Of a DNA stretch of 64,000 bases, positions 23,339 to 47,373 are shown piece after piece. The stretch is from Candidatus Omnitrophota bacterium (lineage in GTDB: Bacteria; Omnitrophota; Omnitrophia; Omnitrophales; Aquincolibacteriaceae): contig JAKLFP010000003.1 of NCBI GenBank assembly GCA_022711115.1, forward strand, positions 9,199 through 73,198. Direction: 5' to 3'. Position numbers and translations under genes: made by a program. Below the pieces are notes generated by a model. The model saw only the letters and a program-made list of their open reading frames with translations, ran no database searches and was not told the DNA's origin. Each line of letters opens with the position of its first letter. Within the stretch, counting starts at the first letter, position 1.

Positions 23339-24020
23339 GGTACCGGGTACCAAGGGGACAGGTTAATCTAGACACCCACCAACTCCTTATCAATGAGTTC
23401 TTCATAGGGACGAGTTGCTTCGACATGTCGACGGTAACGTTCTTGCCTTATCTCTGGCTGTCCTCCCAATGCTTGATATGCAACCGATACCGTCAAAAGT
23501 TCGTTTTTGATCCCGTACGCATAAAAACCATAACTGGAATAGGGCCATTCTGCCGGATTTGAAACCATTTTCGCTCTTACCGGATTCCTTTCGATATATC
23601 GGCCGCAATCCAATAAATAGTTCTCTTTTTCAATTGGTAAGCTTCGATAACGTCCTTGAAATAAATGGCCGAAATGCGTATAGTTTTTTCGGTAGTAATG
23701 ATGATAAGCTCGCTGAATTCCATGCATGTAGCGGCTTAACTCCAAAGAGTTTTCACTTCTCAACAAAAGATGCGCATGATTCGTCATAAGACAGTAATGT
23801 TGAATTTGAACCGGATATTTTTTGAGATATTCACCTATAATTTCGAGAAATTCGTCAAAATCTTCATACCCATGAAACAGTCTCCCTTTATTGTTCCCCC
23901 GAACAATAACATGATAAAGTCCTGTTCCTGACTCTTGCCTTGGACTTCTCCCCATTCATACTCACCTGCCTTTACTGTCTATTTCAACCTGTCCCCTCGG
24001 TACCCGGTACCGTTCTATAA
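23339..24020 (-). mobile_element. RAYT unit 1: REP-like IR, Y1/IS200-like transposase gene, REP-like IR
   Basis: Inverted copies of aacctgtcccc(t/c)(t/c)ggtacccggtacc lie at 23339-23364 and 23986-24020, bracketing the CDS. Confidence 0.65.
23368..23955 (-). CDS. REP-associated tyrosine transposase (IS200/IS605 Y1 HuH family)
   Basis: HuH motif in LMTNHAHLLL and catalytic Tyr in CGRYIERNP. About 90% identical to the second copy at 25343-25930. Confidence 0.75.
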   Translation of the reverse strand: MGRSPRQESGTGLYHVIVRGNNKGRLFHGYEDFDEFLEIIGEYLKKYPVQIQHYCLMTNHAHLLLRSENSLELSRYMHGIQRAYHHYYRKNYTHFGHLFQGRYRSLPIEKENYLLDCGRYIERNPVRAKMVSNPAEWPYSSYGFYAYGIKNELLTVSVAYQALGGQPEIRQERYRRHVEATRPYEELIDKELVGV

Positions 24021-24883: not shown

Positions 24884-25350
24884 GGCGTATTTCGCAGTCT
24901 AGATATAAATTTATCGAGATTGATTTTGTAGATATCATTTATTTTTTCTACGCAACCATCTGTTCTTTCATTTAAAAATTCGTCAATACCAGCTGACCCA
25001 CGAGCCGCAACCAAATTTAATTCTCTCATAAACAAACTCGTCTGCTGGTTAATGAAATCCGAACACTCATTCTGATTCGGCCCAGAGGCACAACTAAAAT
25101 CCAAATGCCCTGCACCCAGGATTTCTATATTGTACTGGTTTTCGACAGGTCTTACATTACCATTTGCATCTTCAATTTGAAACGTTTGCCCGAGATCCTG
25201 GAGCGGCACAGAATCATATTCCCCCATGACGCGTATCAACGTCTTAAGAAAAGGATCATTGATCACGCCATCGCCGACATAAGGCGCCCCATAAGTAACT
25301 ACGGTTGTAAAACGGTACCGGGTACCCAAGGGACAGGTTGATTTAAACAC
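24880..25350 (-). pseudogene. orphan C-terminal fragment homologous to the hydrolase-like C-terminus of the large effector-like proteins
   Basis: VVTYGAPYVGDGV...ILGAGHLDF aligns with INVYGENDFVPLA...ILGADHFDYF of the 563- and 571-aa proteins. Its N-terminus runs out of the REP flank. Confidence 0.5.
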
Positions 25351-25994
25351 CGATTAGCTCCTTATCAATCAATTCCTCATAAGGCCGTGCCGCTTCAACA
25401 TGTTGGCGGTAAAGCTCCTGCCTCATCTCCGGCCGATCGCCTAATGCCTGATACGCCACTGATTCTGTTACAAGTTCGTTTTTGATGCCATAAGCATAAA
25501 AACCATAACTCGAATACGGCCACTCTATGGGAGCCAAAATCATTTTCGCTCTTAATGGATTTCTTTCAATATATCGTCCACAATCCAATAAATAATTCTC
25601 TTTTTCAATGGGTAAACTTCGATAACGTCCTTGAAATAAATGGCCGAAATGCGTATGGTTTTTTCGGTAGTAATGATGATAAGCCCGCTGAACTCCGTGC
25701 ATGTAGCGGCTTAACTCCAAAGAGTTTTCACTTCTCAACAAAAGATGCGCATGATTCGTCATAAGACAGTAATGTTGAATTTGAACCGGATATTTTTTGA
25801 GATATTCACCTATAATCTCGAGAAATTCGTCAAAATCTTCATGCCCATGAAACAGTCTCCCTTTATTGTTCCCCCGAACAATAACATGATAAAGTCCTGT
25901 TCCTGACTCTTGCCTTGGACTTCTCCCCATTCATACTCTCCTGCCTTTACTGTCTATTTCAACCTGTCCCCTCGGTACCCGGTACCTTTCTATT
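25314..25994 (-). mobile_element. RAYT unit 2: REP-like IR, Y1 transposase gene, REP-like IR
   Basis: IRs lie at 25314-25339 and 25961-25994. Confidence 0.65.
25343..25930 (-). CDS. REP-associated tyrosine transposase (IS200/IS605 Y1 HuH family), second copy
   Basis: Same motifs as copy 1. Confidence 0.75.
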   Translation of the reverse strand: MGRSPRQESGTGLYHVIVRGNNKGRLFHGHEDFDEFLEIIGEYLKKYPVQIQHYCLMTNHAHLLLRSENSLELSRYMHGVQRAYHHYYRKNHTHFGHLFQGRYRSLPIEKENYLLDCGRYIERNPLRAKMILAPIEWPYSSYGFYAYGIKNELVTESVAYQALGDRPEMRQELYRQHVEAARPYEELIDKELIGV

Positions 25995-31403: not shown

Positions 31404-32051
31404 TCAAGGTTGCACGTTATTGCGAATCCTCTCCAGAACGGTCCGATCCAATTTAGCAAGATCGTGTTCGCTGACAAGACCGTAAAGTTCAAAGCCATCC
31501 GCATAAAGCTGCAATTGTATTTCGGGACATTGTTCCGACAGGAAGTTCAACCAGCGCAAAAAGCTTTCTCTCGCTTGAGTATTCTGACCTAGCTCTTTTT
31601 CGGCTTTAGCCTTAGCCGCCCATGCAGAAACGCTATTTTCGGGATCCATACCCAAAGCAGCATTGAAGCACTCTAAAGCTTCCTCCCATCGGTTATTCTC
31701 CAGGAGCAAATTTCCTTTTTCCTGGAGCCAGCCGGTATTCTGCGGGTCAATGGCGATGACTTTATCGTAATTCTCAAGCGCATCCGTGAGATTACCAAGA
31801 CAACCTAAACAATAAGCCTTTCCGCTATATATGAATTTTTCTTCGCTTGCTCGATATTCAACATTACTTGCTAAAGTTTTATCAAAATATTCTAGGGCAG
31901 TTTTAAATTCTTCCTTATCCATAGCCTCCCGTGCAAGCTTAAGGTATCCAACTTGATGCAATTCACGACGATAAATGGCCATATTGTTCCTTGGATGTCG
32001 CTTTTGAGGGATAAAATGACATGAATTTTTAAAAAGCAATTCTAACATCAA
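31404..32051 (-). CDS. TPR-repeat protein
   Basis: Three or four TPR units. The likely real start is MAIYRRE with an aagga SD near 31982. Confidence 0.5.
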   Translation of the reverse strand: MMLELLFKNSCHFIPQKRHPRNNMAIYRRELHQVGYLKLAREAMDKEEFKTALEYFDKTLASNVEYRASEEKFIYSGKAYCLGCLGNLTDALENYDKVIAIDPQNTGWLQEKGNLLLENNRWEEALECFNAALGMDPENSVSAWAAKAKAEKELGQNTQARESFLRWLNFLSEQCPEIQLQLYADGFELYGLVSEHDLAKLDRTVLERIRNNVQP

Positions 32052-35000
32052 TATTCATACTTATCTTTACGGTGGATAAATGCTTTCTTGCCTCCTTCCA
32101 AAATCTCAGCACCATGTTCACGTATACCTTGCTTTTTTAGAGGATCCTTAAGGGCGTTGTTAATAAATGAGTTTTCTATCGCTCCACTTACGTACCTTAT
32201 TCTTGCTTGGCCAGCGGAAGGCGCAACTTGGAAGTCGGCTACAATTACTTGTTCAGCGTCAGTATTTAAAACAAGATTAGGGTTATGCGTGACAACAATA
32301 ATTTGGCGCCGTTTCTTTGCTTGGCGGAAATAATCGATGAGATGCGCATACACAGATTTATTATCAAGGTTTTCCTCTGGCTGGTCTATGATAAGCGGTA
32401 TCCCGCTTTTCGCATCTAACGTGAGGTACATAAGCAGCAACACAATCCCCTTCTTGCCGGGAGACAGCAACTCAATATATGTGTTCTGATATTTTATGCT
32501 ATACGTCACACTAAAGAATGAAACACCGAAAAGCCATGCATCAAAATCGATCTGCCTCTTTCCCTTCTTGAACTGATTTTCGGCATCTGATCCCTTTCCA
32601 TCTTCTTTGCCAAACGCCTGCATGAAACGTTCGACAAGAAGGTTGTATGTATCGGCATCTTCTACAAGTTCAATTTTCTCCGCAATAGATTTTATATCCT
32701 TAAACAATTGTTTATCGTCTTGATGATAACGACCAGATGCTTTAAAGTTAACAACCTCGCATGCCTTATCATAAAATCCATTTACATCAAATTCGATTCT
32801 TGCAGAATATCCGATTTGCTTCTCCCCTACATTCTCAGCGTCTATTTTTGCTTTAATGGGAGCACTAAGCGCTTCGAAAATTTCCTTTTCCTTTTGAAGA
32901 AGAATAAAATAATTTTTATAGGTTGTTTTTCTATCTTCGATTTTTTTTGCAAGGATAGGCATCTTAGTTTGTTCTATTTCAGCAATATTCTTCTCTAAGG
33001 CTGAAACCGTTTTCTTATTCTTCTCAATTTTGTCTTCAAAATCTTTGATTACATTTCTCGCATCAGAGGCGATGCTTGATTTTGCCTCTAACCAAGCGAT
33101 TTCCGCATTTAACCCAGAAAGGGAAAGCTTGTTAATATAATCTGAAGTTATTTCGCCGATCTTTTTGTCTTTGCCAGAAACAGGTGATGCCTCCTCCGTT
33201 GCACCTTCTAGAACAATTATCTGTCCCGTTAGTTTCTTCCTCGCTTCTTCTAGTTTAGTTTTAAACTCTGGGTCTACAGTAAATTTCAATTTACTATGAA
33301 TACCGCCTAGACCGATTGAATCAAGATCGGTTTTAATATCACTCAGTTCTTTTTCGATATGTTGAGACAATGTTGAGACCTTTGTCTCTATTGACTCTAT
33401 AGTGCTTAACTGAAGTTTGCACTCAGCAATCTTTTCGTTAATTTCGTTCTTCTTGGCGTAAAGAATAGTCAGCTTATCTTCGATGGCTTTCTCTTCAGCG
33501 TCTGCAGGCTTAGGCTTTTGCTCGTTTAATTGAGCTATTTCTTCTTCGGTCTTCTTTTTTGTTGTCCTTTGAATCTCGAGACTCCCAATCTCTTCCCTTA
33601 ATTTAGCGATCTCGCCATTGAGTTCAAAAATAAGTTTTTTGCAGCTACTCTTTTCCACCTCTACACTTCGTGTTCTCAGGCGTTTCAGGTCAGCAAATGT
33701 TGTTTGCCCAAGCCTGTCGGATATTGGAATATACTGAAAAACGATGTTTTCAATCTCTTGCCTTAATTCATCTGCGTGCTCAGGACGACATCTATTTTCA
33801 ATAAAACTTTGGGAAAGGTATTTAACCTTTTTCTTAGTTTTATAATCAGTCAATTCTTCATCTATAACAATCTCGTCAGGGTCGCCCTCTTTCCATCGAA
33901 TAGTTACCTTGCACTTATCAATCGTTTTTTCAATTTGTTTTGTTGGAGTTAAGGCTTTAAACACAAACGAGCTTGCATCGCCTTTTAGAAGCTCAAAATC
34001 ACCGCATGCTAACGCTATAAAATCAGCAAGTGCAGTCTTACCTGCACCTTTTTCACCGATGATAGCAACTAAGTCTTCATTTAGAGGAAGTGGCGTCTCT
34101 TCAAACCAACCGTTGGAATTTGCAATTTCGACTTTATCAATCACATTCGCTAGATTTTTTCCTTTTGCAGGCATCTTGCCAATATGAATCCTATCTTCTG
34201 GCTCAAGAACAACCTGCTTAAGGCCTATAAATGTCGGGTCTGCTTTTATCCAGCAAAAGCGTTCGAGGTCTGGTCTAGTCTCAAGCTCCTGCTCCGTGTG
34301 AGCATCTGACCCATGGACGCAGGGAAACAATCTGCCGAATTCAGCAATAAATTCTTTCGGCTCTGCATAAGAGGCTTTGTCTTTGCCAAGGAACCAAGCA
34401 ATGTCGTTAGGATTAGAATTAAAAATGCCGTGAGAGATTTGAAGCAGAGTCTTTCGCAATCCATAATCCTGCCCCCAATCGATATCGGACCAAAATTCGC
34501 TTTCTAGAAAAAGAAGATATTTCCCCTTAAAATAATCTGGTTTGTTGCGTAAAGCATTTACTATCTCATCTATTTTAAAAACGATATTCTTTGTGCCGGC
34601 AGACAAATCAGTATCGTGTTTAAAATCGGCCTGTTTCCTACACTCTTTGCCATAATCCTCTATAGCCTTCTTATCAAGCTTAATTTTAGAAAGCTCTCCG
34701 GCGCTACCGCTTCCTTTATAAAAATGAAGATCACCCAAAAACTGCGCCTTAATATCTTGCGGAGAAACTTCGTCACTAAATATGACATGGAAGTTTAATC
34801 GTTTCGGCTCTTTATTGCCCCGCTTACAGACTATATTGTCCAAACGAAATTCTATGTTAGGAAGGATTAATTCCACACTTCCAAGTTTTCCTTTGTAGTC
34901 GGTTATAAGCTTCTCGTACCCATCTATGGAAAAATAATCTGTAACACCAATAACCTTGATCTCTTTTTGCTTCGTAACTTCATCAAGCTTCTTAAAGTAA

Positions 35001-35092
35001 GAATCCCAATTACTAAACCCATTACAGAAAGAAGCTGGAGAATGAACGTGTAAATCCCATTTTCGCCATACAGATCCTCGTTCATACTTCAT
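32048..35092 (-). CDS. PHP-domain phosphoesterase fused to SMC/Rad50-like ABC ATPase with long coiled-coil insert (candidate defence protein)
   Basis: The N-terminus has WDLHVHSPAS...GVTDYFSIDGY (PHP metal-binding motifs). Walker A is GEKGAGKT, followed by about 450 aa of coiled coil, then signature/Walker B/H-loop LIIDQPEENLD...VVTHNPN. Confidence 0.6.
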   Translation of the reverse strand: MKYERGSVWRKWDLHVHSPASFCNGFSNWDSYFKKLDEVTKQKEIKVIGVTDYFSIDGYEKLITDYKGKLGSVELILPNIEFRLDNIVCKRGNKEPKRLNFHVIFSDEVSPQDIKAQFLGDLHFYKGSGSAGELSKIKLDKKAIEDYGKECRKQADFKHDTDLSAGTKNIVFKIDEIVNALRNKPDYFKGKYLLFLESEFWSDIDWGQDYGLRKTLLQISHGIFNSNPNDIAWFLGKDKASYAEPKEFIAEFGRLFPCVHGSDAHTEQELETRPDLERFCWIKADPTFIGLKQVVLEPEDRIHIGKMPAKGKNLANVIDKVEIANSNGWFEETPLPLNEDLVAIIGEKGAGKTALADFIALACGDFELLKGDASSFVFKALTPTKQIEKTIDKCKVTIRWKEGDPDEIVIDEELTDYKTKKKVKYLSQSFIENRCRPEHADELRQEIENIVFQYIPISDRLGQTTFADLKRLRTRSVEVEKSSCKKLIFELNGEIAKLREEIGSLEIQRTTKKKTEEEIAQLNEQKPKPADAEEKAIEDKLTILYAKKNEINEKIAECKLQLSTIESIETKVSTLSQHIEKELSDIKTDLDSIGLGGIHSKLKFTVDPEFKTKLEEARKKLTGQIIVLEGATEEASPVSGKDKKIGEITSDYINKLSLSGLNAEIAWLEAKSSIASDARNVIKDFEDKIEKNKKTVSALEKNIAEIEQTKMPILAKKIEDRKTTYKNYFILLQKEKEIFEALSAPIKAKIDAENVGEKQIGYSARIEFDVNGFYDKACEVVNFKASGRYHQDDKQLFKDIKSIAEKIELVEDADTYNLLVERFMQAFGKEDGKGSDAENQFKKGKRQIDFDAWLFGVSFFSVTYSIKYQNTYIELLSPGKKGIVLLLMYLTLDAKSGIPLIIDQPEENLDNKSVYAHLIDYFRQAKKRRQIIVVTHNPNLVLNTDAEQVIVADFQVAPSAGQARIRYVSGAIENSFINNALKDPLKKQGIREHGAEILEGGKKAFIHRKDKYEY

Positions 35093-35243: not shown

Positions 35244-38200
35244 TTAAATCTTTCCACCTGAAATATCAAAAAACCGCTCAAAGAAGCGTGTCAATTTATC
35301 TAAAACACTCTCGCGTTTTTTGGAACGCTCCCCTCCGGGAGAAAAACGTGATACCGGCGGCAAGACTTTGACCAGAGCAGTACCCGTGGTCGCAACCCTG
35401 CCATTACGGAACGCATCCCGAACAAACTGATAGGTTTTGTCGCGATCAAGATTTTCCTGTTTAATAATCGTTTCCAGTTCTTCTGTCTTTTTCTTTTCCA
35501 CATACTTCTGCCAGTCCTCGTCAACAGAAGCATGGATATCCAGGGAAGCGATAAACTCGTTGATGAGATCTTTTTTGTTGCGCAATTCAACGCTTGAGTC
35601 GATGGCCTTGTTGATGTCGACAAGGATTTCGCGGTTTTTGATGTGGTCTTCGTGGTACTTTTTAACGAGACTCAAAATATAATCGATATTGATCTCAATC
35701 TGTTTGATCAGCTCCATCTCAAACACGATATCGTCGTTAATATTCTCCTTTTCAGCTTCACCGGTATTCCGAAATTCATTATAAAGGTCAATGTAGATGC
35801 TGTGATAGTCCTGCGTTTGGCGCTGGGTTAAAATTTCGTGACCGCTGAATTCGTCAAAAGTAACGAGGATATTTCGGACCCGCAAAATGGCGCTGTAAAG
35901 CCTGATGAAATCTTTTTGATTTTGTTCTCCGACGATCCGCTCACCAATCGGGAATTTTGCCAAAAGCTCTTGAACGAGAGAGGCATATCCACGGATTTCC
36001 TTGTCACCGTCTTTGTAGCCGTTGTAGTACTCCTCATACGTTTTTAGAAGAACGATTCCGCTGGCTTCCTTATCGCCAAAGAGGGCGATGGATTCATTGG
36101 TTGCTTTTTCCAGATTCCGAAAGCAAACAATATTTCCGAACGTCTTGACGCTGTTTAAAATGCGATTGGTGCGGGAATATGCCTGCAACAAGCCATGCAG
36201 GCGAAGATTTTTATCCACCCACAACGTGTTGAGCGTCGTGGCGTCAAAGCCAGTCAGAAACATGTTCACAACGAGCAGAAGATCCACTTCCCGATTTTTC
36301 ACCCGCTCGCTGACATCCTTATAGTAATTCTGAAACTTATCGGAAGACGTGTCATAAGAGGTCCCAAACATCGCGTTGTAGTCTTGAATGGCGCTCTCAA
36401 GAAAATCCCTTGAGCTTTGGTCCAATCCGCTGGTGTCCTCGGAATTTTCGTCAATCACCCCATCAATCTCTTCCTCATTGATACCAAAGCTGTAAATCAG
36501 GGCTATTTTGAGTTTTCTATCGCTCGGTGCCTCTGCGATCTGTTTCTTGAATTCAGCGTAATACTTCTTGGCCACTTCGATTGAAGAGACGGCGAAAATA
36601 GAATTAAAACCGGCCAGCCTGCGATTCTTAAGCTTGTAAAAGCTGTTTCGTTTCGTTTTTTGATCGAAATGCTCGCGGATATAGTTCACGATATTGGCTA
36701 AACGTTTCGGTGAAGCAAGCACCGCTTCCCGGTCAATATCGCGCACTTTCTTGTCCTCAATATTTTCAGCTTCCTTTAAAGTCGAAACATAATCCACTTT
36801 GAACGGCAGAACATTTTTGTCCGCAATAGCATCGACGATGGTGTAGGTATGGAGTTTATCGCCAAAAGCCTGCTCGGTCGTCTTAAAATCCGGACGTCCA
36901 CCCGCCGAAGCATTCACTGCAAAAATCGGCGTCCCGGTAAAACCGAAGAGATGGTAATTCTTAAATGCTTTCGTAATCGCGGCATGCATTTCACCGAACT
37001 GAGACCGATGACATTCATCAAAAATCAGCACCACATGGCCGTCAAAAATTGTATGTCCCTTGTTGCGGCCGATGAACCGGTCGAGTTTTTGAATGGTAGT
37101 GATGATAATGCGGGCCTTAGTGTCTTCCAGCTGTCGTTTCAATATCGAAGTACTGGTATTGCTATTGGCCGCACCTTTTTCAAACTTGTCGTATTCCCGC
37201 ATGGTTTGATAATCAAGGTCTTTGCGGTCCACAACAAAAAGCACCTTGTCGATAGAAGACAGTTTACTTGCGAGTTGGGCGGTTTTGAAACTCGTCAGAG
37301 TCTTGCCCGAGCCGGTGGTATGCCAAATGTAACCGCCCGCCGCTACGGTTCCGAGTTTTTTATAGTTCGTGCTCACCTCAATCCTGTTCAATATTCTTTC
37401 CGTTGCCACAATCTGATACGGGCGCATTACCAAAAGCTGTTTGTCAGCCGTGAACACGCAGTAGCGGGTGAGGATATTAAGAAGAACATGTTTGGCAAAA
37501 AAGGTCTTGGCAAAATCGACAAGATCAGCAATCGGTTTATTGGTCGCATCCGCCCACCAGCTTGTGAATTCGAAGCTGTTACTGGTCCGCTTGCCTTTCT
37601 TTAAGGAGCCTTCGCTTAATTCTTTGATATGTTCCGCACGTGTCGTGTTGCTGTAGTATTTCGTGTGAGTGCCGTTCGAGATGACAAAAATCTGAACATA
37701 TTCAAAAAGCCCAGAGCCCGCCCAAAAACTCTCCCGCTGGTAACGTCTGATCTGATTAAAAGCCTCCTGAATCGCCACCCCACGTCGTTTCAGTTCAATA
37801 TGAACGACTGGTAAGCCGTTAACCAGCACCGTTACATCGTAGCGGTTGGCTCTTTGACCTTCTTCAGTGGCGTATTGATTGATAACCTGTAGCCTGTTTT
37901 CGTGAATTTTGTCTTTGCGGAGCAAATAGATATTTTTAACTGTTCCGTCATCTCTTTTCAGGTTCTTGATAAAATCTTCCTGAATCGTGGCCGTTTTTTC
38001 GGCAATACTCTGGTTGGGATTAGCTATCTCGCCCGTAAAAAAGCGATCCCATTCCATATCGGAGAAGGTGAAGTCATTCAGTTTTTCAATTTGTTTGCGA
38101 ATGTTAAGAATCAAGTCGGTTTCGGAAGTGATCGCCAAATAGTCATAAGCCTGCGATTGCAACTGCTCGATAAACGCACGTTCCAGTTCCGCCTCACCTT

Positions 38201-38399
38201 GATACGATCTTGCAGTTCGGTACTCGGCTGAGTATTCCGCCACGACCGTACTTTGTGGATTTTCTGCCACCAACTTGTATTCTTTATTGCTTGGCATATT
38301 CTTTTTCCAACGGTTTAAAAGTAAGAAGTTTCTTTCGGTAGTATTCGTATTGTTTTTTTCGGGCATCGAGTTCCGCTGGCAAACCCATCGAAATATCAT
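35244..38399 (-). CDS. hsdR: Type I restriction enzyme R subunit
   Basis: Type I HsdR N-terminal nuclease domain, then an SF2 helicase with TGSGKT and DECHRSQ. The real start is probably MPSNKEYK at about 38297. Confidence 0.8.
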
Positions 38400-39465
38400 T
38401 TACCAGTGCTTCGAATTTATCGAGAATAGCAACGATGCGTTCCTGTTCATCAAGAGGCGGAATCGGTATAAGGTAAGACTCAAAATCCCTAACACGAACA
38501 TGTGGCACTCCACTGCCTTTTTTCATGGAATGGATTGTTTCCTGTTTTTGCTTCAATAAGTAATAAACAAATTTAGCTTTTAGCAGGGCGTGATCCACAC
38601 GAACGCTGAACGCATCTGTGAGAAAGATCGGTTGGTTCCAGAAACTTACTAACCCCGCGTAAGCGCCAGACCTAGCGACAACGATAGTCTCTCCGCTTCT
38701 GTTACTCTCGTTGTGAAAATAAATAGGGCTGGGCGCATTTGCAACAACCGGAATTTCACCAGCTGTGGTTTCCTTAGCCGTTATGGCTGTCCCTCGCATA
38801 AGCTGGCCGACCTCCGCCAGTGACTTCCATTCAACATCTTCTTCAAACGTCAATAGTTCTTCGCTATAATAATTATATTGGTGTTTTCTCGCCTCCAGCT
38901 CCGCCTCCAGCTCCGCCTCCAGCTCCGTAAAGTTATCTAAAATTTTCACGATTTCTTGTTGAACGGCAAGTGGTGGCGTAGAGATTCCAATCTCTAACAT
39001 CTTTCCTTTAGTCAACTTTGCTCGAGTTCCGCCAGTCAAGTACGGAACAAAGTTCATATTTTTAAGGTAATGAAATAGGAATCTGTTATCGAGATCACCA
39101 TTTCCTCTTACAACATGAACGTGATTATTTGCCCAAAATTTACCCGAAGCAAATTGTATTGAATAATTCTCCAAACTTGCGGAACCATCTTCAGCAATCA
39201 GCACATAATCGCCTTCATGGGTAAAACCCTCAACGTAATCTTGAATGTTGTTCGCGCCATAGTATGGAATTTCACCCGCTAGGCGCAAACTTGACTTTAC
39301 CGGCTTTCTTTTATTGTCCGCAATTTCACAAATTTCTCCTAATTCCTTAAGCTCCACACCATCGGGACAAATTCCGGCGATTAGTTTTTCAATTTTATTC
39401 ATAGACTTATTCATGCTTGTTTTCAATATCAGCAACAATTTCATCAATCGCCGTGCGCAGTTCAT
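38284..39465 (-). CDS. hsdS: Type I restriction-modification specificity subunit
   Basis: Two target-recognition domains separated by a central conserved helix carrying an ELEA x3 repeat. Confidence 0.75.
38891..38926. repeat. perfect 12-bp direct repeat x3 (gcctccagctcc) encoding (AELE)3 in the HsdS central spacer helix
   Basis: Read directly from the sequence. Confidence 0.8.
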
Positions 39466-40987
39466 TTTGCCGCGTAACGATGCCTTTTATTTCCGCATTG
39501 AGTTTCTTAATATCGATCACTTCGCGGGTGTCTTTTTGCGCTACATAGGTGGATACCGCGATGTTGTAGCCGTTTTCCTCAATAGTTTTGTAATCTACGA
39601 GCTTCGCGAAATGTTCGATATCATCACGTTTGGTAAACGCCTTGAGGATTTTGGCGCGGTTTTCATCGCTCAGCTTGTTCTTGTTGCCGCCTCGGACAAA
39701 TTCGGTTGATGCGTCAATGAACAGGATTTTATTATCTTTCTTGCTTTTTTTGAGCACGATGACACAAGTTGCGATGGTCGTGCCGAAGAAAAGATCGGGC
39801 GGAAGCTGGATCACGGTATCGATGTAGTTGTTATCCACCAGATATTTGCGAATCTTCTGCTCTGCGCCGCCGCGGTAAAGAACGCCCGGAAATTCAACGA
39901 TAGCCGCCGTGCCGCTCGTGGAAAGCCATGAGAGCATGTGCATAGTAAAGGCAAGATCGGCCTTGCTTTTCGGGGCCAGAACTCCCGCAGGGGAGAAGCG
40001 AGGATCATTGATGAGAAGAGGATTGCTGTCGCCATCCCATTTGATTGAATACGGTGGATTGGAAACGATAGCGTCAAACGGTTCGTCATCCCAGTGCTTT
40101 GCGTCGGTTAGCGTATCCCCGTGGGCAATATCGAAGTGATTGTAATTGATATCGTGCAAAAACATATTGATGCGGCACAGGTTGTATGTGGTGAGATTGA
40201 TTTCCTGCCCAAAGAAGCCTAATCTCACGTTTCCCTTGCCGAGAATCTTGGCAAACTTTAGAAGAAGCGAACCAGACCCGCAGGCCGGGTCATAGACCTT
40301 GTTGACTTCCTTCTTACCCACAGTCGACAGACAAGCAAGCAGTTCGCTCACTTCCTGCGGCGTAAAAAATTCGCCTCCGGATTTTCCCGCGTTGGAAGCG
40401 TACATGGTCATCAAGAACTCATAAGCGTCCCCAAAAGCGTCAATCGTATTGTCGTAATAATTACCCAACCGGAGGTCGCCGATTGCTTCCAAAAGCTTCA
40501 CAAGTTTCTGGTTTCTTTTCTCAACGGTATTTCCTAGCTTGCTGGAATTTACATCAAGATCGTCAAACAAACCTTTGAGATCATCTTCGCTGTCCGAACC
40601 CTTGGCCGATTTTTCAATGTTGCGAAATACCGCGGCGAGCGTTTCGTTAAGATTAGCGTCCTGACGCGCTTTCGCGCGGACATTGACAAAAAGCTCGCTC
40701 GGCAAAATGTAAAATCCTTTTTCCTTCACCGTATCAGCACGCCCGAATTCAGCTTTCTTGTCCGGTATCTTGGTATAGTCAAAATCTTTATTGCCACTGC
40801 GCCGTTCGTCTTCATTGATATAGCTGGTGAGATTTTCACTGATGAAGCGGTAAAAAAGCATCCCTAAGACATATTGTTTGAAGTCCCAGCCGTCCACGCT
40901 GCCGCGCAGATCGTTTGCGATTTGCCAGATGGCTCGGTGCAGTTCAGCGCGTTCCTGCTCTTTGGTTGTATTGAGATTATTTGCCAT
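39407..40987 (-). CDS. hsdM: Type I restriction-modification DNA methyltransferase subunit (N6-adenine)
   Basis: Motif [11 protein letters not shown] and motif IV NPPY, with an HsdM N-terminal domain. Confidence 0.8.
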
Positions 40988-41367: not shown

Positions 41368-42216
41368 TCAGAGCCTATGACGTCTAAACCTTCTTGCATT
41401 TAGTAGCGCGAGAGGATCCGGATATTGTCTTCCGGTATGAGCGGCAGCGTTCTCACGCTGGAGCCGAATATATTCCGCGATATAGCAAAGATTCCCTTGA
41501 GCAATAAGTAAGTCAGGGGCCGTAGAAGCTAATTTTACAAGTTCTTCCCGCCTCACTCCGGCTACTACAGCAAACCCTTCCACACGATTGGGAAATAGAC
41601 ACCACAGAGCGGAACGTCTCGCATCTTCCTGAGGAACAGAATCATCCCTACCCTGAAAATCAAAATAAACTGGAACTGAACATGTAAGCCAGTTTGCAGG
41701 GAAACATTCATCAGGAAACGACGAAAGAAAAAAGCCCTTAACTGTTTGTCTGAGACTCCTAAAACCTTTACAAAATCGCGGGTAGTCCCTTATGAGACGC
41801 GTACCATCAACAACCCATAACATATTTTTATAGAAACGTTCGCGGCTTTGCATTTCATCGGGCTGGATTGCGGAACGTTGAAATTCTATTACCAATCCAC
41901 TAGTTGTTTTAATGTCTGCTTTATGTATTTCTCCGGATGCAGGATCTCTGTGGATTATTTCTTGGCAATTTTCAGGAAAACGATTTTTCCATGCTCTGTG
42001 CCATTCCGTTTCATTCTCCCACCACGAATCACATGAAATTTTACTTTTGTGCGCCCAATGCTTAATTCTTTCTTTCCCGCATTTAGCAATCATAACGCTT
42101 TGGCAAATGTCACAAGTACCTCGCAGTCCTTGCTGAGCTTCCGCCTTAACTCCGTTTATTTGAGCGAATTTCATAGTCCGGTCCTTGTAAGCAATTTTCC
42201 AAACGCATTTCCACAA
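41368..42216 (-). CDS. CoiA-like competence-family protein (nuclease-like)
   Basis: CDIC...AKCG...HWAH...C..WWENETEWH matches the CoiA N-terminal pattern. The real start is probably MKFAQING. Confidence 0.55.
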   Translation of the reverse strand: MWKCVWKIAYKDRTMKFAQINGVKAEAQQGLRGTCDICQSVMIAKCGKERIKHWAHKSKISCDSWWENETEWHRAWKNRFPENCQEIIHRDPASGEIHKADIKTTSGLVIEFQRSAIQPDEMQSRERFYKNMLWVVDGTRLIRDYPRFCKGFRSLRQTVKGFFLSSFPDECFPANWLTCSVPVYFDFQGRDDSVPQEDARRSALWCLFPNRVEGFAVVAGVRREELVKLASTAPDLLIAQGNLCYIAEYIRLQRENAAAHTGRQYPDPLALLNARRFRRHRL

Positions 42217-42265: not shown

Positions 42266-42853
42266 TCATGAGACATTTCGATTTTTTAGCCACAGATCAA
42301 AAACATATCCAGTCGCAACCCGAAATTGAGAAACATCCGATTCGAAACAATAGCACACCGTTTTATCCCCTGCGCTTCCGAGAAAATTTCTAATATCCGT
42401 TAAAAATTGCTCGGCTGTTTGCAAAAAAAAGCTTAGTTTTTCAACCGCAGGGATCCAAAAAGAACTTTCGCCTGGCTTCTCAGGCTTTAAATGGCCAATT
42501 CTTTTATTTCGAAAATCTGACAGATTCTTATAATCTTGGCCGCTTACTAACTCGTTCATGCCAACAAAAAGTTTATCTGCTTCAGGAATATCCAGAAAAC
42601 GATTCTTAAAAATATTCAAATAATCTCCATATATTTTACAAATAGTCAAAACCATCATATCCCGAGCCACGCGCTGCAAATTAGCCCAAAAAGTTTTACC
42701 GCATCCTCCATTGTTCACCTTACTCGCATTTTCCCCAATGTGTCCCCAAAGAAACAAAGTCATTCGAAAATCATAAATAAGCGCATGGAAATGCTGACAC
42801 AAATCATCCATGGTTTCCGAATCAATATTTTTATTTCCAAATTTAACTTTCAT
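42266..42853 (-). CDS. HEPN-like (Rx4-6H motif) Abi-type protein, tentative
   Basis: 195 aa, helical, with an RNKRIGH motif near the C-terminal third. No other recognisable domain. Confidence 0.3.
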   Translation of the reverse strand: MKVKFGNKNIDSETMDDLCQHFHALIYDFRMTLFLWGHIGENASKVNNGGCGKTFWANLQRVARDMMVLTICKIYGDYLNIFKNRFLDIPEADKLFVGMNELVSGQDYKNLSDFRNKRIGHLKPEKPGESSFWIPAVEKLSFFLQTAEQFLTDIRNFLGSAGDKTVCYCFESDVSQFRVATGYVFDLWLKNRNVS

Positions 42854-42987: not shown

Positions 42988-43341
42988 TCATCCCTTTTTA
43001 TATTGTTTCTTAATCCTTGGTTCCCGTGCCCGATCGTTTGCATTTTGTTTTTGGGTCCACTTTGGTGCCCAAACTACCCGGTTATTTGTAATGGAGTAAT
43101 GAGACTGGCAAGGCAGGTTCCAGTTTCCTATCGAGGGATAGAGCGAAACGGTTTTGCCATCAAAAATCAGTTTCCAGCCCGCCGGTGAAAGCGGCGTTAC
43201 GACCTCCCGTCCACAGCCACAACAACACTTGTGCAGGACGGTGCAATAGGTGTACGAAATATAAAGCGTTCGCTCCTTGAGTTCATTGGGGATGAACTCC
43301 ACGAATTCATGGCTGAGAACGATCTCATGCGCCATAAACAT
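42988..43341 (-). CDS. Cys-rich DUF6527-like zinc-binding protein (ubiquitin-like-system accessory)
   Basis: HKCCCGCGREVVTPLSPAGW...SLYPSIGNW...CQSHY. Coupled by a 17-nt overlap to the E1 gene. Confidence 0.45.
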   Translation of the reverse strand: MFMAHEIVLSHEFVEFIPNELKERTLYISYTYCTVLHKCCCGCGREVVTPLSPAGWKLIFDGKTVSLYPSIGNWNLPCQSHYSITNNRVVWAPKWTQKQNANDRAREPRIKKQYKKG

Positions 43342-44524
43342 CCTCCGATATTAGTTGATTCGATCTAATCGTATAGGCGCAATAATGCTCTTTGGTCACA
43401 TCGTCAAAATATCCGCAAAGCTTCTTCCATTTGATAACTGCAAGAGCCGCGTTCAATGCGCTTAGTTCTGAAATTTGGACATTTTGGGAATATTCATTGG
43501 GCGCTTCGCCATCGGATAAAGCAATGCGACTGTTGATGTGATCACGCTTGTCTACGGTGCTGGCCGTAACCGTGACAATCCCTGCAAGTGTATTGTTTTC
43601 TCCAAGTTGGATTCCCATCCCTACGTCAATGAATGGAATACTCCATTCTTGCAGTCGCTCGATAATTAACCGCTTGCTTATGCCTTTATCGATGCAAATG
43701 AAGACAAAATTCATATTCTTAAGTTGCTCGATCGTATATTCATCAACGAAGAAGTCGTGAGGAATAATCCTTTTTCGCATCTGCGAATATATGCTTGCAA
43801 GATAATGGGCTTTCCGATGTTTTTTGCCAAGTTCGTCTCTTGATGGCGCTCCGGGGCATCTAAACGCATTGTGGTTCAAGAAAAGATCGTGGTCAAAAAG
43901 ATGAATCTCCTCGACGGGCGTCTTGGCAACAAAGTCAAGCACGTAACTGCCTGTTGCGCCAGCACCTACGATGGCGATCTTCTGCCCCTCCAACTTTTGA
44001 TTGGCTAGGACAATGCCCGCTTTGGTGGGTGCGGTATCGAGGTAGTTGAAGATTGAATCATCCTCTTCATCGGGCACAACCACGGGATTAGTATAGGCCG
44101 TAACGGTTGGATCGATCGCCTGTGCCGGACTACAAACAATTGCGATATAAGTTTTTATCTTCTCGTAATAATCCACATATCTGCCAGCTGTCGGACCCGT
44201 TGTGGGTTTCCTCGAAATTTGATGGTTGGGGGCAAGACCATCACCCAGAGATTGGTTGACGTTTTGAGTTACTCCGGGCAAGACAGAGCCGTGCTCGTCA
44301 CAAGGCGGGTCACCTACAAAAAAAATGACATGCGACGTCGGGGCAACGGTGACTTCTCCAGCGAGGTCAAGCACGGATGCAATAATTCCGCGCTTGACCT
44401 CCTTGGCGGCGTTCACATAAGGAACGCCGCAGACGAATAAGTACTTCGACTTGCTGGAGATATCTAAACCTTCAGCACGAAGTCTGCTCAGATCGGTATT
44501 AAGACTGACCAGTTTCTGTGACAT
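43325..44524 (-). CDS. ThiF/MoeB-family E1-like adenylyltransferase with an N-terminal roughly 190-aa E2-like extension
   Basis: Rossmann GxGxxG in IAIVGAGATGSYVLDFV, with downstream NHNAFRCPG and RIIPHDF. The N-terminal domain has H...C spacing (SHVIFFVGDPPC) compatible with a UBC-like active site. Confidence 0.65.
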   Translation of the reverse strand: MSQKLVSLNTDLSRLRAEGLDISSKSKYLFVCGVPYVNAAKEVKRGIIASVLDLAGEVTVAPTSHVIFFVGDPPCDEHGSVLPGVTQNVNQSLGDGLAPNHQISRKPTTGPTAGRYVDYYEKIKTYIAIVCSPAQAIDPTVTAYTNPVVVPDEEDDSIFNYLDTAPTKAGIVLANQKLEGQKIAIVGAGATGSYVLDFVAKTPVEEIHLFDHDLFLNHNAFRCPGAPSRDELGKKHRKAHYLASIYSQMRKRIIPHDFFVDEYTIEQLKNMNFVFICIDKGISKRLIIERLQEWSIPFIDVGMGIQLGENNTLAGIVTVTASTVDKRDHINSRIALSDGEAPNEYSQNVQISELSALNAALAVIKWKKLCGYFDDVTKEHYCAYTIRSNQLISEDVYGA

Positions 44525-44729
44525 CGAACTTCATTCCGTTTTGGAGCTGAACGCTTTTACCAGGGGTGAGGCTCCCCCCCTGATTGCCGTGACTCCAGGT
44601 AACCGTAAAAAATGCGTTCGGTGGAACGGGATTAAAGGCTAACGCCACAACCCGCTCGAAGGTGATGGATGGTCCTGGTTCCTTTTTGGGCCGCCCGTTG
44701 ACGATGATGTTGAATTCATTGTGATTCAT
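44499..44729 (-). CDS. small beta-grasp/ubiquitin-like candidate protein (76 aa) ending ...TGQS
   Basis: Its size and position as the first gene of the E1 operon suggest this. A strong SD (aggagga) precedes it, and it overlaps the E1 start. Confidence 0.35.
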   Translation of the reverse strand: MNHNEFNIIVNGRPKKEPGPSITFERVVALAFNPVPPNAFFTVTWSHGNQGGSLTPGKSVQLQNGMKFDVTETGQS

Positions 44730-44826
44730 ATGTCCTCCTGTTCTATTAGCGACCTTTTTCTTAATCTTTCTGGCACAACCGCGCCGCTTTTAACGGTTAC
44801 GCTTTCAGAATAAATTTTATCAAGCC

Positions 44827-44875
44827 CGCTAAGTTTGTCAAGCAAATAAAATTAGCGCGCTTGACATCCTTAGCG
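44827..44875. promoter_or_regulatory. 15/17-bp inverted repeat operator candidate (cgctaagtttgtcaagc ... gcttgacatccttagcg) overlapping a TTGACA-N17-TATCCT promoter
   Basis: Read from the divergent intergenic region between the Ubl operon and the HTH/ImmA pair. Confidence 0.45.
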
Positions 44876-44903
44876 TTCAGCGATATCCTATGGCTGTCAG
44901 GAG

Positions 44904-45254
44904 GTGATAACCATGCCAGAAAAAGACCAGAATCTAGGCCAATATCTTAAAGAACTCCGGATAGTAAAAAACCTTAGCCTGCGCGATGTTGAGAAAGCCA
45001 CTAACAATTCCGTGTCAAACGCGTATTTGAGTCAATTAGAGTCAGGGAAAATTTCCAAACCCTCCCCTCACATATTAGAAAGTCTCGCAAAAGTCTATGA
45101 AGTGCATTACGAAGACCTTATGGCTGTAGCAGGTTATATGCGTTCATCCAAAACAAAAAAAAGTGGCGTCGCATTTTTTAACCAGCATGATCTCAGCGCC
45201 GAAGAAAAAAAGAAGTTGCTAGATTATTTGCAGTTTCTTAGAAAACAGAAATAA
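44904..45254 (+). CDS. XRE-family HTH transcriptional regulator (CapH-like)
   Basis: LGQYLKELRIVKNLSLRDVEKATNNSVSNAYLSQLESGK, preceded by an SD (aggaggtg). Confidence 0.75.
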   Translation: MITMPEKDQNLGQYLKELRIVKNLSLRDVEKATNNSVSNAYLSQLESGKISKPSPHILESLAKVYEVHYEDLMAVAGYMRSSKTKKSGVAFFNQHDLSAEEKKKLLDYLQFLRKQK

Positions 45255-46174
45255 TGAAAAAAGATGATTCAAGCCTCCATCCGGAAGAACTGAATAATGT
45301 GCGAAAACATGCTCGGTTGCTTCTTAATCAAGCAGATGCCCTTAATCAGCTTCCCACCCCCGTTGACCGATTAGTCGCAACGGCAAAGCTTACCGTTAAT
45401 CGCGAAGTTTCCCTTAGCCAAGACGAAAGTCTCCTGTCAAGATTCAGCACCAACATAGGTAAGATCGCTCGACCTCATCTTCATGGTGTTAAAAAGCTTC
45501 TCGGCCTGCTTCATGTACCCTCCGGTGAGATTTGGATTGATCAATCTCAACACGAAAGCAAAAAAAAGTTTATTAAACTTCATGAGACTGGTCATGGATT
45601 TATACCTCATCAGAAGAAAATGTATGAATTTATGGAGGATGGCATGCTCGAACTCGCTCCGGAAATCGAAGACCAGTTTGAACGAGAAGCGAATAATTTT
45701 GCATCCGAAACACTATTCCAGTTAGATAAATATGAAAAAATGGCCGCGGATTACGAAATCTCAATAAAAACGCCTTTGGATTTGTCGAAAACATTTGGGG
45801 CGTCAGTATATTCAAGTATGCGACGATACATCCAAACTCATTTTGCTCCATTAGCCCTAGGCGTATACGACTTACCAAATCGTTCGCAAGGGACTAATTT
45901 GTTTTCCTTAAGAAGAGCGGCGATGTATTCTCCTTCCTTCTTCAAAGAATTCGGTGCGGTTCATTTTCCAGCAACATGCACCGAATCCGATTATTTAGGA
46001 TCGATATTAATGAGGGCAAAACTCCAGACTCATCATATTTGTTCGCTTAGAGACCTGAATGGGGACATCTACGAATGCGCTGTCCATGTTTTTTCCAATT
46101 CCTATGAAAAATTTGCAATGCTCATTCCTCTCAAAAAATCTTCGAAGAAACTATTGATTCATTGCTTAAATTAA
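45254..46174 (+). CDS. ImmA/IrrE-family zinc metallopeptidase (CapP-like)
   Basis: HExxH in LHETGHGFI. It abuts the HTH gene, the typical pairing. Confidence 0.7.
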   Translation: MKKDDSSLHPEELNNVRKHARLLLNQADALNQLPTPVDRLVATAKLTVNREVSLSQDESLLSRFSTNIGKIARPHLHGVKKLLGLLHVPSGEIWIDQSQHESKKKFIKLHETGHGFIPHQKKMYEFMEDGMLELAPEIEDQFEREANNFASETLFQLDKYEKMAADYEISIKTPLDLSKTFGASVYSSMRRYIQTHFAPLALGVYDLPNRSQGTNLFSLRRAAMYSPSFFKEFGAVHFPATCTESDYLGSILMRAKLQTHHICSLRDLNGDIYECAVHVFSNSYEKFAMLIPLKKSSKKLLIHCLN

Positions 46175-46308: not shown

Positions 46309-47070
46309 TCAGCCGACTAAGGCGAGATCTTCTTTTTGCCGGTATGCTTGCGCCACCGGGAATGTCAGCATAAATGTAGTGCCGCACCCTTTGAAACTCG
46401 AAACGGTGATACTACCGCCGTTCCTCCGGACGAGCGCGTTAACGATACAGAGACCGAGACCGTTCCCGCCATTTTGCTCTTTCGTTGTTACAAACGGTTC
46501 GAAAAGACGGTTCAGGATCTCTTCGGGTATGCCGGGACCTGTATCGGCAATCGTGATCGTCGCTATCGGCACTTCTTTAGCCCGGAATCCGAGGCTCGCC
46601 CGGATGATCAATTTTCCCTTTTCTTTTTGATCGGAAGACTGCGTATTTTTCCCATAAGACATGGCTTGCGCGGCATTATCCGCAAGGCAATATAGAATCT
46701 CCGTAAGATCATTCTTGTCGCAAAGAACATTGGGAAATTCGCTGGCAATATGACTTATGATCTCAATATGTCCGGATTTTGAGCGCTGCCTTTGTAACAT
46801 TCCGGTTACTTCCTGCCAAACATCCTTGACCGAGGTGTGTTCGATATCGCCGGATGCTTTGGGAAGCGCCTTCATGGCAAGCCCGATTCTTTTCGTGATT
46901 AAAAGCGCCTTGTCAGTTTGAGAGTAAATGCGCTTCATCATTTCCCGGGCATGCTGCAAGGCTTCATCGTCATCGCGGAACCGTCCTTCTTCGAATCGGC
47001 AAAGGTGCGATTCGACGTATCCTTTCACGGTATACAAAACGCTCACGAGATTGTGGCGCATTTCCAACAT
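46309..47070 (-). CDS. cytoplasmic histidine kinase (HisKA plus HATPase_c only)
   Basis: H-box MRHNLVS, and G-boxes DTGPGIP and GGNGLGL. Confidence 0.6.
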   Translation of the reverse strand: MLEMRHNLVSVLYTVKGYVESHLCRFEEGRFRDDDEALQHAREMMKRIYSQTDKALLITKRIGLAMKALPKASGDIEHTSVKDVWQEVTGMLQRQRSKSGHIEIISHIASEFPNVLCDKNDLTEILYCLADNAAQAMSYGKNTQSSDQKEKGKLIIRASLGFRAKEVPIATITIADTGPGIPEEILNRLFEPFVTTKEQNGGNGLGLCIVNALVRRNGGSITVSSFKGCGTTFMLTFPVAQAYRQKEDLALVG

Positions 47071-47127: not shown

Positions 47128-47373
47128 CTAAATGATGCGCTGCCGTCTGAGAAATTTCGAGATACGTAATTTTTGTTCCTCCGAAAGCTCAAACAAACCA
47201 AGTTCCGCCTTCGAAATATCCGAAATGCTGACTCCTGTCCGCTCAAATAATTCGATCTTGGTAATCCCCCGCTCCTTGCGGCGTTGAAGAAGGCTTGCGC
47301 CGTATTCTTTGAGCATACGGTGGCGAGTAATTCTTCTCGCTTCTTCCATGGGCATTTCCATTAGCTCCATCAT
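47128..47373 (-). CDS. small HTH (XRE-like) protein
   Basis: GITKIELFERTGVSISDISKAELG. Confidence 0.4.
   Translation of the reverse strand: MMELMEMPMEEARRITRHRMLKEYGASLLQRRKERGITKIELFERTGVSISDISKAELGLFELSEEQKLRISKFLRRQRII

Follow-up and report, generated by a model that had tools for sequence, protein, structure and literature searches.

What does a compact set of ubiquitin-like conjugation genes do in Candidatus Omnitrophota, and is it a new system or a known one? We examined this question for a stretch of 64,000 nt (hereafter the window, to which all positions refer) of contig JAKLFP010000003.1 from assembly GCA_022711115.1. An initial annotation, made from the letters alone, had described an overlap-coupled operon of three genes on the minus strand and a divergent pair encoding a helix-turn-helix (HTH) protein and a peptidase, and all five open reading frames (ORFs) were found at the coordinates that it gave. 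Our analysis indicates that this locus is very probably a complete Type II Bub (6E.2) operon, bubA-bubBD-bubE, accompanied by a divergent CapH/CapP regulator pair. The system is real but already described; the copy is an ordinary one, and the CapH/CapP switch is usual for Bub. Gene identities and residue conservation come from the present analysis, and the chemistry set out below is carried over from homologues in Escherichia coli and Citrobacter.

Gene content and assignment of the operon

The operon opens with bubA (44499-44729, minus strand), whose ATG is preceded, 5 nt upstream, by a Shine-Dalgarno sequence (AGGAGG) and which encodes a 76-aa single-beta-grasp ubiquitin-like protein (Ubl) of the Ubl1 class. 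It is followed on the same strand by bubBD (43325-44524), whose 399-aa product fuses an E2-like BubB domain (aa 1-164; 44033-44524) to an E1 adenylation domain, BubD (aa 175-399 plus the stop codon; 43325-44002), and by bubE (42988-43341), which encodes a 117-aa DUF6527 protein, or one of 115 aa from its likely start at ATG 43335. On the plus strand lie a capH-like gene for an XRE-family HTH repressor (44904-45254; 116 aa from a GTG, 113 aa from ATG 44913) and a capP-like gene for a 306-aa zinc metallopeptidase of the ImmA/IrrE (M78) type (45254-46174). Public gene callers choose ATG 43335 for bubE and ATG 44913 for the HTH gene, the latter with GGAGG 8 nt upstream. The overlaps measure 26 nt between bubA and bubBD, 17 nt between bubBD and bubE (11 nt if the latter starts at ATG 43335) and 1 nt between capH and capP.

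Family searches agree with these identities. Pfam assigns the 76-aa protein to Multi_ubiq (1.6e-12), the 399-aa protein to DUF6791 (8.6e-45, aa 11-164) and ThiF (2.4e-11, aa 175-303), the 117-aa protein to DUF6527 (6.2e-24), the HTH protein to HTH_3 (1.7e-10) and also HTH_31, and the 306-aa protein to Peptidase_M78 (2e-5), while precomputed Pfam matches label PF20137 "BubE". BubBD scores 514.7 bits against NCBIfam NF004805, for which the cutoff is 352. PADLOC recovers capH over nearly the full length of the protein (2.6e-9) and capP (8.6e-15), bearing out the earlier description of the pair as CapH/CapP-like; it holds no model for the small BubA protein or for DUF6527. A Candidatus Omnitrophota metagenome-assembled genome (MAG), GCA_035390585.1, has a contig identical to the window, in which the five proteins (HOW59081-HOW59085) carry only generic GenBank names such as ThiF family and DUF6527 family.

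Operons formerly called "6E/DUF6527" were renamed Bub (bacterial ubiquitination-like) by Ye, Gong, Chambers and Corbett, whose definition of Type II Bub (6E.2) comprises a free BubA, a BubBD fusion and BubE, with no JAB peptidase (bioRxiv 10.1101/2024.11.21.623953; published version Nat Struct Mol Biol 2026, 33:71, PMC12885553). We assign the locus to Type II Bub because its domain content and gene order match this definition. The absence of a JAB deubiquitinase, which the initial annotation had pointed out, was upheld, and Type II operons have none: Pfam, PADLOC and NCBIfam gave no JAB/JAMM peptidase match among the five genes and the adjacent ORFs.

The closest point of comparison is the Type II Bub operon of E. 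coli ZDHYS365, which shares with the window the three genes and their order, the E2-E1 fusion, the lack of a JAB gene, the zinc and dyad residues of BubE, a BubA ending in x-[K/Q]-Ser and a mobile or defence-island context. The two differ in that their BubBD proteins are only 38% identical over their full length (47% for the copy in E. coli ES2), that BubA of ZDHYS365 has three beta-grasp domains in 222 aa where the window protein has one in 76 aa, and that the window has a short, N-terminal hydrophobic extension on BubE, a CapH/CapP regulator and an Omnitrophota MAG as host. Since the window BubA has a single domain, the Ca2+-dependent filament behavior of three-domain Ubls may not apply to it. 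The Type I operon (6E.1) of Citrobacter sp. RHBSTW-00271 (BubAB, BubCD and BubE; PDB 9ea4, 9ea5, 9ea8, 9eae, 9eav) has a homologous E1 adenylation domain, the same oxyester logic of a crossover-loop Tyr and an E2 Ser, and a DUF6527 protease. By contrast, its Ubl is fused to the E2 and its JAB peptidase to the E1, and its Ubl requires cleavage behind a conserved Gly, whereas the window Ubl is free-standing and Ser-ended with no JAB; the helpers of the E2 Ser are His and Asp in Type I and Lys and His in the window.

We collected 80 related loci (L004-L083) from a species-representative genome collection. The initial annotation had suggested tabulating the co-occurrence of the E1 with DUF6527, and BubE follows BubBD in 80/80 loci; BubA precedes BubBD in 77 of the 80, with all genes on the same strand. 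These loci come from Planctomycetota, Acidobacteriota, Cyanobacteria, Proteobacteria, Chloroflexota, Actinomycetota and Bacteroidota, together with two archaeal MAGs. The overlap of the bubA stop with the bubBD start, at 44499-44524 in the window, is exactly 26 nt in 72/74 loci, and the BubBD ATG sits within the [N/D]-V codons of BubA.

The window operon itself had no match in E. coli genomes. Starting from a Vibrio relative, we reached another Bub operon of E. coli, present in 3/5426 complete E. coli genomes. The ES2 copy of that operon (L084, NZ_CM184352.1 4053393-4062822) adjoins an IS1 element and a tyrosine integrase at tRNA-Leu.

Other E1-based systems could in principle account for these genes. 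Cap2/Cap3 and Bil (BilABCD) share with Bub an E1 adenylation step, E2-like transfer to lysines, a deconjugating peptidase and a location in defence islands, and Cap2 is likewise an E2-E1 fusion. It is nevertheless extremely improbable that the locus is a Cap2-type system (Type II cyclic-oligonucleotide-based antiphage signaling system, CBASS, or 6A-MBL) or a Bil-type system instead of Bub. Cap2-type matches span only ~50-130 residues of the nucleotide-binding core and reach 34 bits against a cutoff of 320, no CD-NTase, MBL or JAB gene lies in or adjoins the operon, and there is no conserved Cys. Bil needs separate E1 (IAD-AAD-CYS), E2 and JAB proteins, whereas the window has one fusion with a single adenylation domain. 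Both Cap2/Cap3 and Bil also differ in using thioesters on a catalytic Cys and JAB peptidases, and what Cap2 conjugates is a CD-NTase and not a Ubl.

The ThiF-family Pfam and NCBIfam matches of the adenylation domain, and the distant fold matches of BubA to ThiS and MoaD, are what a ThiS/ThiF or MoaD/MoeB sulfur-carrier system for cofactor biosynthesis would also yield, yet we give that explanation almost no credence. The locus lacks a C-terminal Gly-Gly, a conserved Cys, a rhodanese domain and any partner for sulfur transfer, its E1 is joined to an E2-like domain, the DUF6527 protease is present in 80/80 loci, and the ThiF equivalog model scores 28 bits against a cutoff of 275. A sulfur-carrier neighborhood, which the initial annotation had named as the outcome that would tell against its proposal, did not emerge: among the neighborhoods of the related loci we found no homologue in a thiamine or molybdopterin locus, the neighbors being regulators and defence genes.

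Predicted chemistry of conjugation and removal

Residue conservation in BubBD was evaluated in 142 cluster representatives (37-51% identity) from an exhaustive search that yielded 1847 relatives. The initial annotation had pointed to an H(x10)C signature as compatible with an E2/UBC-like fold and to a CPG motif in the E1 domain, and a catalytic part for these cysteines fell away. None of the seven BubBD cysteines is conserved; C75 of the H(x10)C motif is kept in only 69% of these diverse homologues, and C223, the cysteine of CPG, is in the minority at a position where Ala is commoner. The family instead uses Ser and Tyr oxyesters, at positions corresponding to S104 and Y345. In the E2 half, H65 is conserved in 100%, S104 in 99% and K106 in at least 85% of representatives; in the E1 half, R222 is conserved in 100% and Y345 in 99%, and G187, G189, G192, D211, K238 and D300 are invariant. 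The three glycines form the GxGxxG motif within VGAGATGS, in agreement with the E1 Rossmann domain that had been proposed for the C-terminal half. Ser104 (codon 44213-44215, minus strand) is the predicted E2 nucleophile, with Lys106 and His65 as putative helpers, while Arg222 and Tyr345 are encoded on the same strand at 43859-43861 and 43490-43492.

Homologues of known function give these positions a meaning. In alignment with E. coli ZDHYS365 BubBD, for which we used sequences machine-read from Table S2 of the preprint and carrying visible transcription errors, S104 corresponds to S106 and R222 to R219, the arginine of an NxFR motif; in that protein S106A, R219A and Y342F each abolished conjugation (bioRxiv 10.1101/2024.11.21.623953). 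The best PDB sequence match of the window BubBD is Citrobacter BubCD (1.9e-6, covering the E1 core), with R222 falling on the adenylation Arg, and Citrobacter BubCD (9ea4) is also the top Foldseek match. An AlphaFold2 (AF2) model of aa 1-164 has a high predicted local distance difference test score (pLDDT) and comprises an N-terminal helix, four strands, a long loop bearing S104 and a long helix, an order of elements that fits a truncated UBC core; the E2-like domain of Type II Bub is described as a UBC-like fold without the two C-terminal helices.

Several results count against this picture of BubBD. Y345 falls on the Y342 column, but the machine-read E. coli text prints V there. The UBC-like fold of aa 1-164 was not recovered in either fold search, both of which were swamped by E1/Rossmann matches; a 33-sequence profile of aa 1-168 gave only chance matches when run with hmmsearch against PDB sequences; and hhalign of the aa 1-168 profile against the machine-read Citrobacter BubB returned a probability of 1%. 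In the AF2 model of the monomer, confidence is low for the E1 half. More generally, everything beyond the sequence rests on homology.

Among the sequence and structure matches of the adenylation domain are MccB and PaaA, and the small protein ends in Ser and not in Gly-Gly, which together would favor a different function: BubBD could be a peptide-modifying adenylyltransferase of the MccB/PaaA type that carries out a modification of the BubA C-terminus like that of microcins or of ribosomally synthesized and post-translationally modified peptides (RiPPs). We regard this as very improbable. The MccB and PaaA matches are weaker than those to BubCD and limited to the shared Rossmann core, BubA is a folded beta-grasp domain and not a leader/core peptide, and no exporter or immunity gene is present at the locus. 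In addition, the E. coli homologues link BubA covalently to BubA, for which both the E2 Ser and the E1 Tyr are required. The RiPP, sulfur-carrier, Cap2 and Bil assignments were all rejected on gene content and residues.

The beta-grasp fold that had been suggested for BubA is well supported. Its AF2 model has a pLDDT of 92.5, and the top Foldseek match is BubA of E. coli ZDHYS365 (9cd2, TMq 0.83); lower in the ranking come further multi-ubiquitin proteins of bacteria, ThiS and ubiquitin, with MoaD distant. The flexible tail ends in ...TETGQS, the last residue being Ser76. The initial annotation had remarked on a TGQS end in place of GG and suggested that conjugation chemistry or processing may differ from that of characterized systems. 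The chemistry does differ from canonical ubiquitination, but the tail is no anomaly: the terminal Ser is kept in 77/77 related loci, whose BubA tails conform to [N/D]-V-[T/S]-x-T-x-[K/R/Q]-S. Gly74 of the window TGQS is not conserved and is usually Asp or Asn in relatives; the crystallized E. coli ZDHYS365 BubA ends in ...TQTDKS, and the second E. coli BubA, from the ES2 operon, in TIQS. The overlapping reading frame does not explain this conservation, as BubBD codons 7-8, which overlap the BubA tail, are variable in relatives, and therefore the terminal Ser is selected in BubA itself.

In vitro, BubBD and ATP alone suffice for the conjugation of E. coli BubA (bioRxiv 10.1101/2024.11.21.623953). 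From this conjugation without processing we infer that the carboxylate of the terminal Ser would be the group of BubA that is activated. The invariant Ser, which stands where Gly is used by Type I Bub, by ubiquitin and by all other Ubls known, may itself be functional, although we consider this unlikely. Its hydroxyl, or the preceding conserved K/R/Q, could join in activation or transfer, for example through substrate-assisted oxyester chemistry; alternatively, the Ser or the K/R/Q could form a tail-specific recognition code for BubE. If the Ser does have an active role, Type II Bub would be a chemically distinct sub-class, and the Omnitrophota operon, whose Ubl is a minimal single domain of 76 aa, would be the simplest place to test it. 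We found no discussion of the terminal Ser or of the 26-nt bubA/bubBD overlap in the Bub preprint texts (published versions not covered).

The third gene product had been described as a DUF6527-like protein with Cys-rich and CxSH motifs and as functionally uncharacterized. The former description was borne out, and the latter is superseded: Ye et al. have characterized DUF6527/BubE as a Ser-His protease that depends on Zn and clears BubA conjugates, and the zinc site and catalytic dyad of Citrobacter BubE have been shown by mutagenesis (bioRxiv 10.1101/2024.11.21.623953). Across the 80 loci C39, C41, C43, C78, S70, Ser80 and H81 of the window protein are 99-100% conserved, and Cys40 of the CCCGCG run is conserved in only 73%. 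C39/C41/C43/C78, S70 and H81 align with Citrobacter C57/C59/C61/C99, S92 and H102. These correspondences suggest that the window BubE is a DUF6527 serine protease acting as a deconjugase, with a predicted C4 zinc site and Ser70-His81 dyad. It is 58% identical to BubE of E. coli ES2, which the Prokaryotic Genome Annotation Pipeline (PGAP) names 'ubiquitination-like system serine protease family protein'; that name is present in one of the three E. coli genomes.

The CapH/CapP pair and its divergent promoter

CapP carries the HExxH motif as HETGH at residues 110-114, and in alignment with Thauera CapP its Glu143 falls on the third zinc ligand. The only PDB sequence match is Thauera CapP itself (7t5t, E 0.0074), covering HExxH and the downstream Glu, and matches in Pfam and PADLOC were limited to the peptidase domain (aa 90-202), with no family match for the C-terminal 100 residues, the part of CapP in which a GAF-like domain would lie. 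There is no Cys between H114 and E143, so that the protein is without the cysteine-switch loop, as are 67% of CBASS-associated CapP proteins (Lau et al. 2022). Among the PDB sequence matches of CapH are DdrO, the substrate of IrrE, and an immunity repressor from a phage. The pair resembles CBASS CapH/CapP (Lau et al. 2022; 7t5t) in consisting of an XRE HTH gene followed by an HExxH M78 peptidase gene, in lying upstream on the opposite strand and in having a palindromic site on the promoter; the peptidase differs in that its sequence similarity is remote (E 0.007 to 7t5t). Deinococcus (DdrO/IrrE) and ICEBs1 (ImmR/ImmA) have related repressor/peptidase pairs.

The association of such regulators with Bub is an established one. 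CapH/CapP next to 6e systems was already reported by Lau et al. 2022, and CapH with CapP accompanies 168/544 catalogued Bub operons (31%; bioRxiv 10.1101/2024.11.21.623953). Among the 80 related loci, an iterated profile placed a CapP-like gene upstream of Bub in 59, about 40 of them with an adjacent HTH gene.

A separate arrangement occurs in 10 of the 80 loci, where a ~1150-aa fusion of an M78 (IrrE-like) peptidase, a UvrD helicase and a PD-(D/E)XK nuclease is encoded immediately upstream of bubA, on its strand, and occupies the usual place of CapH/CapP (L061:1618-5019, L071:1740-5195, L065, L068, L072-L074, L076, L077 and L079). This fusion may serve as another kind of sensor for DNA damage, or as an accessory to the system.

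The 174-nt intergenic region between bubA and capH holds two back-to-back promoter-like sites, with 11/12 and 10/12 consensus matches, and the boxes and inverted repeats of the divergent promoter/operator region together occupy 44814-44889. On the bubA side a -35 box, TTGACA, lies at 44841-44836 and an extended -10 box, TAAAAT, ends at 44814; on the capH side TTGACA lies at 44861-44866 and TATCCT ends at 44889. The near-perfect 17-bp inverted repeat noticed earlier on a -35 element is indeed present and covers both divergent -35 boxes, one arm on each: its arms, 44827-44843 and 44859-44875, match at 15/17 positions, a score reached by 0/2000 dinucleotide-preserving shuffles of the intergenic region (shuffle maximum 14). 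A second, overlapping repeat pairs 44820-44836 with 44848-44864. A 183-nt region contains three copies of the half-site GCTTGA, against 0.13 expected, and four of TTAGCG, against 0.05 expected, and both copies of GCTTGACA in the 64-kb window sit in the divergent promoter region.

Position and symmetry, together with the findings of Lau et al., suggest that CapH may bind this repeat, and the same work is the ground for supposing that CapP would cleave CapH when triggered by single-stranded DNA (ssDNA). Two points speak against the operator. Part of the symmetry follows automatically from two divergent TTGACA boxes, which leave the flanking CTTAGCG halves unexplained, and the operator is not conserved: related CapH/CapP-Bub loci carry other palindromes, for example ACAAAC-N-GTTTGT, and only the -35 aligns. 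The comparison of operators across loci neither supports nor refutes CapH binding.

Neighborhood, proposed mechanism and role

To the left of the operon in the window lie an orphan ORF, a CoiA-like nuclease gene, a gene for a small HTH_17 protein, a type I restriction-modification (R-M) system and a gene for an SMC-like ATPase. The R-M system comprises hsdR (35244-38399), hsdS (38284-39465) and hsdM (39407-40987). The ATPase (SMC_N/AAA; 32048-35092, minus strand; 1014 aa) matches PADLOC models of the Ppl, LmuB (Lamassu) and AriA types and is probably a further defence gene beside the R-M system. The CoiA-like protein (41368-42216, minus strand) has an N-terminal zinc-finger-like region and a nuclease-like region. 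The orphan ORF (42266-42853, minus strand; 195 aa) was considered as a fourth component of the operon and rejected, having no Pfam, PADLOC or NCBIfam match and being absent from 80/80 related loci. To the right are two-component signaling genes. Directly after capP, on the opposite strand, come genes for a 253-aa protein with only a HATPase_c (GHKL) domain (46309-47070, minus strand) and for an 81-aa HTH protein (47128-47373, minus strand); kinase regulators of the CapK/CapS type have been reported beside other Bub operons.

Farther away in the window, two IS200-like Y1 transposase paralogues of 195 aa each (23368-23955 and 25343-25930, both minus strand), 91% identical and 1.4 kb apart, sit among TPR-repeat proteins in a low-GC stretch (38-42%, ~22-36 kb).

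Close relatives of the operon, with BubBD 74-84% identical, have differing neighbors. One locus has a patatin and CD-NTase CBASS on the same strand as the HTH/M78 pair (L086:1-2547), another has AbiEi/AbiEii beside Bub (L087:1-2523), and a third has a DNA methylase there (L085:1975-3027). These variable neighbors show that the cassette moves between defence islands.

From these elements we propose how the system may work. At rest, CapH bound to the GCTTGA/TTAGCG half-sites over both -35 boxes would repress bubA-bubBD-bubE as well as its own promoter. The appearance of ssDNA, whether from DNA damage or from phage replication, would activate CapP, CapH would be cleaved, and the operon would be de-repressed, its three genes being translationally coupled via their overlaps. 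BubBD, expected to be a homodimer through its E1, would adenylate the Ser76 carboxylate of BubA by means of the Gly-loop and Arg222, with no prior processing of the Ubl. BubA would then pass to Tyr345 of the crossover loop as an oxyester, from there to Ser104 of the E2 domain as a second oxyester, with Lys106 and His65 assisting, and finally to a target lysine. BubE, as a Zn-stabilized Ser70-His81 protease, would cut the isopeptide bonds between BubA and its targets and so limit or reset the pathway.

What such tagging would be for is a further question. The initial annotation had proposed an inducible, ubiquitination-like defence module, and of this the conjugation operon under a CapH/CapP-type switch stands, but the word "defence" is unproven: the authors of the Bub study state that protection from phage has so far been demonstrated for no Bub operon (bioRxiv 10.1101/2024.11.21.623953), a point that weighs against a defensive role. 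That role is our inference from the neighborhood and the regulators.

The locus could be a Type II Bub operon all the same and yet serve a general response to DNA damage or stress, tagging host proteins without acting against phage, an explanation that we consider possible, though somewhat doubtful. The Bub authors, who found no operon protecting E. coli from phage, expressly allow for a role in stress response; the known Bub regulators (CapW, CapH/CapP as well as CapK/CapS) all detect DNA damage and not phage as such; and the right flank of the window consists of ordinary signaling genes. Against this, the immediate neighbors are defence genes, namely the type I R-M system and the SMC/Lamassu-like ATPase, with CBASS, AbiE and a methylase in close relatives, and a pattern of variable neighbors and patchy phyla that includes archaea is typical of mobile defence genes.

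As a finding, the Type II Bub assignment adds little, being one more operon of this type with the commonest regulator. It does allow the locus to be reannotated as bubA, bubBD, bubE, capH and capP, and the very small single-domain BubA may suit target-finding or structural work. For the family as a whole, the regularities that emerge from the related loci (the terminal Ser of BubA, the 26-nt overlap and the M78-UvrD-nuclease fusion) may help to find the targets and the purpose of Bub.

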